The translations under genes and the position numbers were made by a program. Of a stretch of 64,000 bases of DNA, positions 39,822-61,277 are shown in pieces. How positions within the stretch are numbered: the stretch's first letter is position 1; each line of letters begins with the position of its first letter. This DNA is from Octopus vulgaris. Its lineage: Eukaryota. Below the pieces are notes generated by a model. It had not been told where the DNA came from. It made no database searches and worked only from the letters and a program-made list of their open reading frames with translations. The DNA is taken from the NCBI GenBank assembly GCA_951406725.2, contig OX597821.1:89590001-89654000 (forward strand), given 5' to 3'.

Positions 39822-40423
39822 TATTACTTCAGCATATAGCTGCATATAACATAGCATCATTTCCACACTGCCTATATAATGTTATCATCAACTATGCTAA
39901 ATAACATCCCTGTAACCATGCAAGATTGTTCTGGTGAGAGCCATTGAGACCCCTGGTAGATTGGAGAATGAACTAGCTGAACTCTTGTAAAAAGTAGAGG
40001 TTGGTAGTAGTGGAGAGAGAGTTTTTTGGTCAGCAAGTCGATGCTGTTCAATAACACTGTGGGATGTTGGACGGAAGGTCCTGTTAAGAAGCTAGGGGTC
40101 TGGTTTGGTCCAGATCTCCAGGTAGAGGAGAATTGGGATGAGGTAACAAGCAAGGGAACTCCCCAAAACCAGACCTGCTAGAAAGGGCGGAGGTGACACG
40201 GAAGTTTACTGCATCCATTATCACCTACAGCCTAACCGTTGTGCCTTGTCCCGATTCGTAGCTGTGCAAGCTGGAGCGACTCCTCTTTCACTTTTTGTGG
40301 ATGTGGATACCACTTGTAAGGCACTCTATCTGCTGTCAAAATTTATAAAAATGGGAAGACGGAATAGTAACAGAAAAATAGGCAAAAGGATAAATATCAT
40401 AAGAGGCAAAAAATGGGAACACA

Positions 40424-52423: not shown

Positions 52424-52829
52424 GTTTTTTTCTACCTAGGAACCACTCAGATTTACGCATTTCTCCCATCGTTTGATACAGCTCCGGAGACCGTTTTTGT
52501 AGAAGACCTCAGCTTGTTCCTCCCACCACGACGTGACTTCAGAAATCAAGGCTGCATCATCTGGGAAACGCTTTCCTTTCAAAAACAACTTCATGGCTGG
52601 GAAGAGGTGAAGATCAGAGGGTGCAAGGGGAGGAGTTCATAGCTGCATGCCTGTGCTTCTGATCTGGCGACACGCGAGTTGTGGACTGGAACGTTGTCCT
52701 GCAGGAGGAGGATGCCTTTGCTGATCTTGCCCCGCCTCTTGATTTTGATAGCCTCTCTTAATTTCTTCAAAAGTGAAGCATAATAGGCCCCTGTAATTGT
52801 GGTACCCTTTGCCAGGAAATCGTAGCATA
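52424..52829 (-). pseudogene. Mariner (DD34D) transposase fragment
   Basis: DFLAKGTTITGAYYASLL...LLLQDNVPVH...APSDLHLFPAMK...RWEKCVNL; PYSPDL region deleted with a frameshift. Confidence 0.92.
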
Positions 52830-53107: not shown

Positions 53108-53524
53108 CTTTTATTCTTTTATTCTTTTAGTTGTTTCACTCATTTGGCTGTGGCCATGCTGGAGCACCACCTTTAAGTCGAACTAATCAACCCCAGAGCT
53201 TATTTTTTGTAAGTCTAGTTCTTATTCTATCAGTCTTGTTTGCCGAACTGCTAAGTTACAGGGTTGTAAACACACCAACATTGGTTGTTAAGCGATGGTT
53301 GCAATATAAACACAGACATAAATGCATACATACATACATATGTACATATGTACATACATACATGCATACATACATAAATATATAATGCATATACGACTGG
53401 CTTCTTTTAGTTTCTATCTACCAAATCCACTCACAAGGCCTTAGTCAGCAATAGTAGAAGACACTTGACCATGTGACATGCAGTGGGACTGAACCCAGAA
53501 CCATGTGGTTGAGAAGCAGGCTTC
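53108..53524 (-). mobile_element. SINE family B lacking its A-box
   Basis: Matches consensus from AAGCCTGCTTCTCAACCACATGG onward. Confidence 0.8.
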
Positions 53525-54109
53525 TTTCTTTCATTACATTTGCCATAAAGGCATAATACAGATGGAAGCTTGTGAGCTGGACACAGACACGATGATGATG
53601 ATGGAATGAAAAAAGAGATGGTTGGTGGGGGAAGAAGTCAACACCCGCCGACTGTTACTTCCTGATAACATTGTTCTTTTTTAAGAACACAAATGAGGTG
53701 TTGAACCTCTTACAACAATTACAAATTGAGGCACTGAGCCTCTTACCAATCAAAAAAAAGTCCAGCAAAGTATATTCAACTTGAGGCGCTAAGCCTCTTA
53801 CCGATCTCCATGTTTGAATCGAGGCATCAAGACCTCTTACTCTACCTCCTCAATTAAATCTCTTGCTGCCTGCAGGCAAGCCTGGGCCCCATAAGAGACA
53901 ATTATATTCATCCTTGGTAAAGGTATCTATCACTCTGTAGAAATAATTTTCTGCCATGACCTCCGCAGCCACCTGTGGAGACCAATCTGAGCCTTCAATG
54001 TAAGTCAGGACTGCCTGTTCCCGATCTTCCAGATTCCTCACAAAGTTCTCTATAGCCCCTATCAAACCAAGGTCACCTGGGTGAAAGCCAGGAACCCTAA
54101 ACACTGCTA
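53525..54109 (-). mobile_element. Chimeric retroposon: tRNA-Glu piece, unknown ORF, four hairpin repeats, Tx1-like tail
   Basis: Tail CCATCTGTATTATGCCTTTATGGCAAATGTAATGAAAGAAA resembles the LINE end at 59468-59515. Confidence 0.55.
54061..54109 (-). pseudogene. tRNA-Glu(TTC) fragment (D-arm end to T-loop)
   Basis: TTAGGGTTCCTGG-CTTTCAC-CCAGGTGACCTTGGTTTGAT: 5-bp anticodon stem, 7-nt loop with TTC; acceptor stem absent. Confidence 0.75.
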
Positions 54110-54144
54110 TGTATACATTTAATATGATAGGTATATTATATATA

Positions 54145-54542
54145 CTAGCAGTATCACCCGGCGTTGCTCGGGTTTGTAAGGGAAATAACTATATAAGCAT
54201 TTTTAGAGAGTTATAGTCAAAAAATAGCAAAAAAATGAATTAAAAATGGAAAAAAAATTATGGTAATTTTTTTTTTAAATCGTTGACTCATCGTAGACAT
54301 TTTTAGAGAGTTGCTTCCCTTATATAATAGCGAAAAAATGCATTAAAATGGAAAAAAATGATGGTAAATTATTTTTAAAATCGTAGACTCATCGTAGATG
54401 CATGCTAATACCCAGAAGGGCTCGATATGAATCACGACTATAAGATACCCGGTTTTGGTTACACTGCACCGCAAAATGTGGGAGTAGTTAGGAATCTAAA
54501 TCATAGGAGACAGACACACAACTTCACTTTTATATATAAAGA
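54145..54542 (-). mobile_element. Non-autonomous Helitron, subtype 2
   Basis: TC start, hairpin, CTAG end; matches 29956-30350. Confidence 0.85.
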
Positions 54543-59467: not shown

Positions 59468-61277
59468 ACTTTCTTTTATTAGCCACACAGGGCTGAATAC
59501 AGAGGGGACAAATACAAATGCAGAGCTTTTCTTTTCGAGGGTGGAAAAAAATAAAAAATGTAAGATTGCGATCAAAAGGGATCGAGAGGAGGAAAAAAAA
59601 AAGGAAAAAAAGGAAAATCGTGTATCACAGAAATAATGGTATAAACATTGATATAACAAGATTGGGTTCATCCGTGGGAAGAAAAGCCTACAGAAAAGAC
59701 TACGGGAACCCCAGTCAGGGAGGAAATAAACACATGAGGTCAAAAATGCTCTCTTTCTTTCTTTTTTACGATCTACAGGATCATGCTCAAAATGGTTTCG
59801 TTACTAGCACGCACCATCTTTGCAACATTCACCCATCTTTTTTTAATCTTTCGCGAGACAAAACTTCCCTCTCCATTCTCACCTTCCTTTTCAAGTGGTA
59901 CTTGAAAAAGTTGATGAGCGATTGGCCAGAGAGGTAAGTGTTTGTCTCTAATCCTTTCGCTCGAGTCCACCTGAAATTATCTATGACGTCCCCCTTGTTT
60001 GGGTCTTTCTTGATCAGTGCCACTGCTCCTCGCTTTACAAAAGCAGGAATACTCCCGTTCTGCTGCCAGTTGCAGTAGACAGCTGCCAAGACGCCTCCAA
60101 ACAAGTCTGGCATATGAAAATAAAATTCGTAGGGCAGACCATCCAAGCCTGGTGACTTGTCTCTCGCGCAGCCTACCATCGCATCCTGTACATCCGCAGC
60201 TGTGATAGGCTTTTCACAAGACTCCACCTCCCTTGCTGAGAGTCGTGGCAAGGCATGCAGGTAGGCACTAAAGTCCACTCTGCTTTCTGTCTCACCACTT
60301 GTCCCAAACAGTTGGGTGAAGTGTTGTTGAAAAACCCCACACATCCTTTTAGGCTCGAGCAATTCGCGCCCCTGTTCATCTATAAGAGACTTGATGGTGG
60401 CTCTGTTGCCTCGTTGCGTCTCCACCACTCGGGCCTCTTGGGCGGCTCCAACTCCTTCGTTCCTCAGAGCACGCATCCTAGCTCTGACAACGCATCCCTC
60501 GTGTTTGGCGTTGAGGTGTTGGTCGAGGGCCAATCTCGCCGCCAGTACGTTGGACGCGATGCCAGTTCTAAGTGCCTCTTCTAAAACCTTAACTAATTCT
60601 CCCTCTATTCTATTTCGGTCTAATGCTAGGGCTCTACTGTATCTGACTGATTTTGCTTTAATCGCTTTTTTTAGGGCATACCACCATCTGTTGTTGATGA
60701 TGGTACCCGTCAAAGCTCTCTTAACTAATGTGCTGATCCGGTCCCTGTAAACCTGTCATGCTGTAAAAGACGCGTTCAGTTTCCAGTAACCAGGACCCTG
60801 CCTATGTGTCTTATCTAAGTCAAGTGTACAAGTCACAAACTTGTGATCTGTGTAACTGACTATATGAAATTGTGGACAACCTACACTATTTTTATCTATT
60901 GTCCTACAGAATACTCTATCTAAGTATGATCTGGACGACCCGATGCGGTTACTCCATGTCCACATTGGCACATTCGGGTGGTCCAGTCGGTACCTGTCAG
61001 ACAGTTGGAAACGTCTGAGCAGGTCTTTGAGGCATTTGCATCCTCTTCTATTGCTATCTCTGCCCACGTAGTCTAGATGCGTGTCCAGGGTGGCATTCCA
61101 ATCCCCCACTAAAAGTAAAGGACGAGACGTTCCCATGAAAGACTCTAGACGTCGAAAGAAATCTGGTCGGCCTGTTAAGGACGGAGCATAAACTGCTATC
61201 AGTCGAAAAGCACACTCATTGCTGCCATCGACATCCAAAACGACCAGCCTACCCTCCGGGTCTAGGAAATTTGCTCT
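59468..61277 (-). mobile_element. Tx1/L1-clade LINE ORF2: APE plus linker, RT deleted, 3' UTR intact
   Basis: DPEGRLVV..AVYAP..VGDWN..WTW..SYLDR..TDH..GYWKLN; KSPGLDGLPYEFY; DNFR fused directly to the C-terminal region; one in-frame stop at 60756. Confidence 0.92.

Follow-up and report, generated by a model that had tools for sequence, protein, structure and literature searches.

Within a 64,000-nucleotide stretch of Octopus vulgaris DNA (hereafter, the window), a minus-strand segment is very probably the decayed 3' end of a retroelement that encodes only ORF1, lying at a fixed base in the head of a SINE, where a two-ORF, Tx1-like partner is likely to have supplied the endonuclease and reverse transcriptase for its insertion (Table 1). 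The copy is a dead, decayed and truncated member of a real and unusual SINE-targeting system. The first-pass annotation had described four modules here, a tRNA-Glu(TTC) piece, an open frame, an array of hairpins and a tail joined to a SINE, and had read them as a possible composite retroposon. All four are present on the minus strand where they had been placed; the composite reading is not supported, since the tRNA piece is absent from the 29 other element copies that were fetched.

Table 1. Layout of the window copy and its surroundings (window coordinates)
Feature	Position	Strand	Basis
3' 536 nt of a ~1.95-kb ORF1-only non-LTR retroelement, 5'-truncated copy	53525..54060	-	copy comparison
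tRNA-Glu(TTC) fragment, D-arm to T-loop; seen on the window copy only	54061..54105	-	alignment to genomic tRNA-Glu copies
ORF1 C-terminal remnant, frameshift near 53870-53885	53837..54060	-	frame comparison with relatives
Hairpin unit 1: 5-bp stem, U-G closing pair, 6-nt loop	53820..53840	-	folding
Hairpin unit 2: C-G closing pair	53782..53801	-	folding
Hairpin unit 3: C-G closing pair	53727..53746	-	folding
Hairpin unit 4: U-A closing pair	53694..53713	-	folding
GC-rich box, conserved in the hairpin lineage; candidate long-range partner 53572-53580	53642..53652	-	position only
Tail octamer, complementary to target-site duplication	53565..53572	-	sequence comparison
3'-terminal ~40 nt: stem-loop (53541-53553) and AATAAA-type end, no poly(A)	53525..53565	-	common to two-ORF partners
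Host SINE from SINE position 24 on; first 23 nt absent at window locus	53115..53524	-	SINE alignment

The family was recovered by a search of the animal's own genome (2.8 Gb in 227 contigs), in which 44 best-candidate matches were scored among 1043 candidates. None of the 44 scored matches covers the tRNA part of the query, and most start at query position 50. Eleven loci were extended, and all ten of those that hold the query (L038, which does not contain it, was left out; L100 is a duplicate of L012) yield an element of about 1.9-2.0 kb, framed in nine cases by a SINE head and a duplication and in the tenth (L041) by an inverted SINE. The element consists of a 5' UTR of about 400 nt, a single ORF (ORF1), a 3' UTR with hairpins, a terminal stem-loop and an AATAAA-type end without poly(A). 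No ORF2 or reverse transcriptase is found in the ~1.95-kb element, nor does any of 20 loci of 8.5 kb around young relatives, in which the ORF1 frame is open over 420 codons, contain an ORF2 match. Thirty copies, the window's included, comprise 12 that are full length and 18 that are 5'-truncated at varied points, so that the marks of retrotransposition, a fixed 3' end, variable 5' truncation and a tail shared with partners, are all present. Upstream of the point at which the window copy meets its tRNA piece, the 29 others carry further ORF1, a SINE head or unrelated flank, and never tRNA. From the family majority the window copy differs at 37 of 496 positions (7.5%).

Several further features of these elements were observed. 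At least one other ORF1-only lineage (L144, L145, L147-L150) occupies the same SINE base, with 24-31% ORF1 identity and UTR hairpins that are different from, and longer than, those of the window lineage. An internal-deletion derivative of about 90 nt (L203:1410-1508, oriented) retains the 5' end and the tail known from the young subfamily; its SINE head and duplication are both intact. In both subfamilies a strong motif resembling a 5' splice site follows about 110 nt after the start of the 5' UTR (L121:640-655 and the matching place in L031-L041); no clean splice joint was seen in contigs of four runs guessed to be RNA, in which the young subfamily is covered poorly and in parts.

The query contained no SINE sequence, and 24 of the 27 copies with a scorable 3' end join exactly the same SINE base (the exceptions are L018, L023 and L030). 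The target is a tRNA-type SINE of 420 nt, and the insertion base falls just past an A-box-like motif; the window's tail joins it at SINE position 24, precisely the kind of join, just past the A box, that had been described from the sequence at the outset. At their 5' ends, 11 of the 12 full-length copies have the first 23 nt of the SINE together with a duplication of ~13-15 bp, and 13 of the 17 other truncated copies are, like the window's, without the SINE head. Across the genome, two SINE variants show 102 and 444 exact junctions with the tail, against 0 for reversed-pattern controls. Rfam gives no tRNA match on the host SINE head and nothing at its gathering threshold in the window, the only matches near by being microsatellite-driven miRNA families. 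The SINE presumably includes a CORE-like stretch, which we recognised by the CORE motif. It thereby recalls OR2, the octopus CORE-SINE named in PMC4758252, and its relatives, in combining a tRNA-type head with such a stretch, a likeness of description that extends as far as the accessible text of that source.

Elements with the enzymes that the window's family lacks occur at the same base. ORF2 sequence is found there at 2 of 30 and 8 of 30 junction loci of the two SINE variants, and the partners were located through such tail-SINE junction patterns; a search with zf-RVT, tried as another way to the partner, led instead to Tx1-like families whose flanks differ and which, in the 30 loci fetched out of 150, bear no resemblance to the element. 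L192, L234 and L235 are full-length two-ORF elements with the same SINE head at the 5' end, and L230 and L235 have endonuclease, reverse transcriptase and zf-RVT domains. At four loci (L133, L189, L151 and L021) the regenerated target site bears a tandem stack of elements, among them an ORF1-only copy preceding a two-ORF copy. The two-ORF elements share only their terminal 30-40 nt with the window element; the earlier description of its tail as Tx1-like was right. Because they use the same SINE base and have these last 30-40 nt in common, they are likely to be the helpers of the ORF1-only elements, which would then be moved in trans by partner ORF2p. The partners are called Tx1-like on the strength of their domain layout (zf-RVT, CCHC ORF1) and their target specificity. 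For the window's older subfamily no intact two-ORF partner was found, L192 being decayed and the young partners examined carrying frameshifts. Mechanistically, the partner ORF2p would recognise the shared terminal stem-loop, nick the SINE and then copy the element RNA from its 3' end; in the window copy, copying or joining would have ended after 536 nt.

The tail also varies with the target. Among 40 tail clusters, 15 have a readable motif within the stretch searched: the tail reads AGCTT in all six clusters with an AAG target and AGCTA in all eight with a TAG target, one cluster having neither. The association of tail motif with SINE variant gives a Fisher p of 3e-4 when clusters are counted without correction for kinship, and individual copies lie in the other SINE variant in 3 of 25 cases in cluster 1 and 1 of 28 in the window's cluster.

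The open frame in the window runs for 85 codons, from 54107 to a stop at 53853-53855, of which about 69 lie past the tRNA part, in keeping with the 70 or so counted before. It had been left without a recognisable identity; since it is 63% identical to the matching frame, ORF1, of the full-length copy L034, it is the C-terminus of ORF1. The family stop codon falls within the first hairpin repeat unit. The nearest database protein to ORF1 is labelled Octopus sinensis, no homologues were found among longer proteins, and an atlas search with the C-terminal 104 residues gave no usable match. ORF1 shows a weak zf-CCHC (Pfam) match, under the curated cut-off, and in a feature comparison resembles ZCCHC3-like RNA-binding domains. 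A structure model made from a 17-sequence alignment (pLDDT 83; a single-sequence fold, at pLDDT 43, was discarded) matches tandem-RRM structures with a best E of 3.6e-5 and low TM-scores of 0.27-0.38. ORF1 is therefore predicted to be an RNA-binding protein with two RRMs and a CCHC knuckle. It is 28-34% identical to ORF1 of two-ORF LINEs in the same genome (E 4.5e-31 to L198 ORF1 and 7e-23 to L234 ORF1), and this distance, taken with a shared tail of just 30-40 nt, indicates that the ORF1-only elements are a long-separate lineage, not a recent deletion product.

Downstream of ORF1 lie the four hairpins, separated by spacers of 18, 35 and 13 nt. Every one folds with a 5-bp stem (-5.9 to -9.1 kcal/mol), and none of 1000 dinucleotide shuffles reaches four (mean 0.19, maximum 3), so that the array is as first described and exceeds chance. 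The unit has the pattern GAGG-N7/8-CCTC; CCTC follows at 24 of 74 GAGG sites, where random offsets give about 1. Within one ORF1-only lineage, 12 of 15 clusters have hairpins, at one to four per UTR; a strict match is absent in the other three clusters, several relatives have one unit or none, and none of four two-ORF tails has any. As the partners do without them, the hairpins should be dispensable for recognition by ORF2p, and their confinement to one ORF1 lineage makes a binding site for ORF1p the best guess. The conserved GC-rich box further downstream is paired locally in the minimum-energy fold of the window copy, and not with its candidate long-range partner.

The structure of the units was assessed in an alignment of 30 distinct examples picked by their 5' arm (alignment A2 omits one duplicate and five GAGG sites that fall in coding or A-rich stretches, and has the four window units in place of L013). 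Pairing holds up well, with 97.3% of stem cells paired and a closing pair that is U-G in 12 units, C-G in 10, U-A in 6 and something else in 2, but never C-A. Covariation, on which the first-pass annotation had proposed to judge the hairpins, is borderline: the observed values are reached by 27 and by 30 of 500 shuffles, and a separate test gives p=0.07. The stem shows no double change against the commonest pair, and four of its five pairs are nearly invariant; it is because the core arms hardly vary that covariation can be no more than borderline. Three subfamilies lengthen the stem by three different complementary flanks, and slid controls score as high for these outer pairs.

It is about an even bet that the hairpins are RNA binding sites for the element's own ORF1p, which would give the element RNA an advantage in the competition for partner ORF2p. 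They would offer a concrete candidate site, short and repeated, whereas the usual account of L1 ORF1p has it binding RNA irrespective of sequence. That the array instead has no function and arose as a side effect of recurrent short duplications within the 3' UTR has a somewhat smaller chance: the number of units does change between subfamilies, from none or one to four, and the near-invariance of the core arms leaves covariation borderline. Against it, subfamilies of ~70% identity differ in spacers and loops yet keep the arms, the closing pair is confined to U-G, C-G or U-A in 28 of 30 units, and the stem is extended in three subfamilies by different complementary sequences, the last point being weakened by the equally high slid controls. 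Two other roles were rejected. As second DNA landing sites the hairpins (GGTAAGAGG resembles the target GGTAAGAAG) have 1 genome-wide match outside an element context, with a control of 0, and as general 5' splice-site mimics they fail in that GTAAG is missing in at least three subfamilies. A joint reading, in which long-lived ORF1-only parasites find their one SINE base by RNA as well as protein, the tail octamer base-pairing to the target strand and altering as the SINE alters, and in which the hairpins added by the window's lineage load the tandem-RRM ORF1p so as to capture the partner's ORF2p, is put forward tentatively, as a possibility on the unlikely side. If true, it would provide a sequence-defined ORF1p binding site and RNA-assisted aiming in an L1-group LINE.

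There remains the tRNA piece. Aligned with a genomic tRNA-Glu copy, it agrees in 38 of 45 positions and reaches from the D-arm to the T-loop, the extent first reported for it; ARAGORN and Rfam call no tRNA within the window. Contigs of two other organism labels span the junction of tRNA and element (X4, 53773-54162; X6, 53936-54162), a third (X2) spans it with only 30 letters on one side, and X9 has no crossing contig among those listed. The junction is thus old and real, and not an assembly error. A tRNA-Glu piece joined to the element was found at none of 18 other tRNA-Glu matches and at none of 30 tRNA-Glu copies, two sets that overlap. The first-pass annotation had considered an undescribed family of tRNA-Glu-headed composite retroposons, and the junction, being real and shared by other organism labels, speaks for such a family. 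It is nevertheless hardly credible: no second junction copy was found among the best candidates scored (a few diverged copies could escape), the head, its A box incomplete, breaks off within the B box, the ORF that it would carry is a truncated ORF1, and tRNA is seen on 0 of 29 other copies. The suggestion of a tRNA-targeting Tx1 relic likewise falls, for the target is the SINE; none of 30 tRNA-Glu copies is interrupted, and the flank downstream of the element is SINE and not the 3' arm of tRNA-Glu.

The origin of the stub is better approached through the tRNA-Glu copies of the genome. The tRNA-Glu core has 151 exact matches, many of them in one gene cluster; a large tRNA-Glu gene cluster at G000:C10:81.83-81.96 Mb accounts for about 50 of the matches listed. 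The first 30 copies all retain the 3' arm and trailer, none ends in the T-loop, and fusion with the head or the tail of a SINE is seen in most. Five of the 30 sit directly before the head of the target SINE, and four more exact fusions of this kind were found separately. On this ground the stub most probably represents what is left of a tRNA-SINE fusion after clipping at the 5' junction of the element. The target SINE would already have borne a retrocopied pre-tRNA-Glu on its front before the insertion, some 50-60 bp of target (the tRNA 3' arm, the trailer and the SINE head) would have been lost at the 5' junction, during insertion or later, and the remaining stub would have been left abutting ORF1. 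The stub would then be a local accident of the window locus. The tRNA piece is more diverged from its majority (8/45) than the element (7.5%), with p=0.018, or 0.07 without CpG sites, which weakly favours a tRNA copy older than the element. No microhomology is seen at the junction, and no target duplication was found around the tRNA-SINE unit, for which controls are equally blank. As a separate observation, the dispersed tRNA-Glu copies L245-L272 are mostly pre-tRNA with trailer, fused to the heads or tails of several different SINEs, and their 5' ends cluster near tRNA positions 12-13 and 18-23.

A one-off template switch, in which the partner's reverse transcriptase jumped from the element RNA to a tRNA-Glu clipped at its 3' end and a target deletion removed the SINE head, is a rather unlikely origin, and a less likely one than the fusion remnant, so that the chimera suggested at first keeps some standing as an alternative. 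It has a parallel in crocodilian SINEU-2, likely moved by Tx1-Mar, which in the accessible text of PMC4494074 repeatedly gained 3'-truncated U1 pieces at its 5' ends; the loss of the SINE head, at 13 of 17 truncated copies, is common; and the 5' start of the stub agrees with that of many tRNA-Glu retrocopies. However, all 30 tRNA-Glu copies pass through the 3' arm into the trailer and 0 end in the T-loop, a SINE head followed by a tRNA-Glu piece was nowhere found (exact pattern only), and the higher divergence of the tRNA piece leans towards an older tRNA. Improbable, too, is that the truncated element and the 3' part of the SINE were moved as one read-through RNA, copied by the LINE partner of the SINE starting at the tail of the SINE itself, with a subsequent switch to tRNA. 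Such an RNA would account for those truncated copies that are without a SINE head, and tRNA capture is frequent for the target SINE's partner, but no duplication flanks the 5' end and SINE end in 14 such copies (controls also show none), and a tRNA clipped in the T-loop would still be required. The fusion remnant is therefore the reading retained here.

Each part of this system has relatives. Non-autonomous LINEs in which ORF1 is present are known from L1, Jockey and CR1, as HAL1, HeT-A and Ag-Sponge (PMC5753468; PMC5786205). As far as the accessible portions of these sources describe them, the octopus element resembles them in having ORF1 as the sole frame left between 5' UTR and 3' tail and in leaving 5'-truncated copies; unlike them it is related to Tx1-like elements and not to L1, Jockey or CR1, is site-specific and has no poly(A). 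Its single ORF is homologous to a LINE ORF1, as in the HAL1-like class, but it is not HAL1 proper, the mammalian L1-derived element, in that its ORF1 matches the local Tx1-like LINEs. With the Tx1 clade it shares sequence-specific insertion with target duplication (24/27 junctions; ~13-15 bp), and the ~1.95-kb element lacks the AP endonuclease, reverse transcriptase and C-terminal zinc region of ORF2 that mark an autonomous Tx1-clade LINE. Tx1-clade LINEs that target transposons include Tx1 in Tx1D of Xenopus, Tx1-Mar in Mariner-N4_AMi, with SINEU passengers, and Tx1-9_AMi in Harbinger (PMC4494074, accessible text). In these systems, as in the octopus, the target is another mobile element, non-autonomous passengers share it and insertions occur in tandem; judged by the same text, the octopus system differs in that the target is one base of a SINE head, the passengers encode a protein and the tail octamer tracks the target variant.

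The tRNA stub also has its parallels. U6-L1 chimeras are an example of template switching between a small RNA and a retroelement. The U1 and U2 extensions of SINEU-2 (PMC4494074, accessible text) are further small-RNA/retroelement chimeras of this kind, and these chimeras resemble the window copy in placing a copy of a structural RNA on the 5' end of a retroelement; the usual octopus fusion, by contrast, is of pre-tRNA with trailer on SINEs, and the junction of T-loop and ORF1 is likely secondary. Transposon-targeting LINEs and ORF1-only derivatives are thus known singly, and no example of the two together at a SINE head came up in the literature searched; Repbase and supplementary repeat libraries may include these families. 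The main text of the Octopus vulgaris repeat annotation (PMC13282606) does not mention a SINE-head target with ORF1-only passengers, and the accessible parts of PMC4758252, PMC8967140, PMC11203168 and PMC3747384 contain no such case. What is new is the distribution of the hairpin array and the account of the tRNA stub. With a 40-nt shared tail, a 14-bp target and young copies in which ORF1 is open, the system offers a compact test case.

Other mobile elements lie near by in the window. About 40 nt upstream of the tRNA stub, at 54145-54542 (minus strand), is a high-copy non-autonomous element which we take to be Helitron-like from its TC start, its hairpin and CTAG end and its position between A and T, and the boundaries of which agree with loose contig ends and depth. 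A further Tx1-like ORF2 fragment at 59853-61268 (minus strand) has a similar stem-loop tail, to about 59470, that ends in microsatellite-rich flank and not in a SINE. At 52500-52810 (minus strand) lies what is, judged by eye, presumably a mariner-type transposase fragment, and at 40035-40339 (plus strand) there is a short Tx1-like reverse transcriptase fragment.
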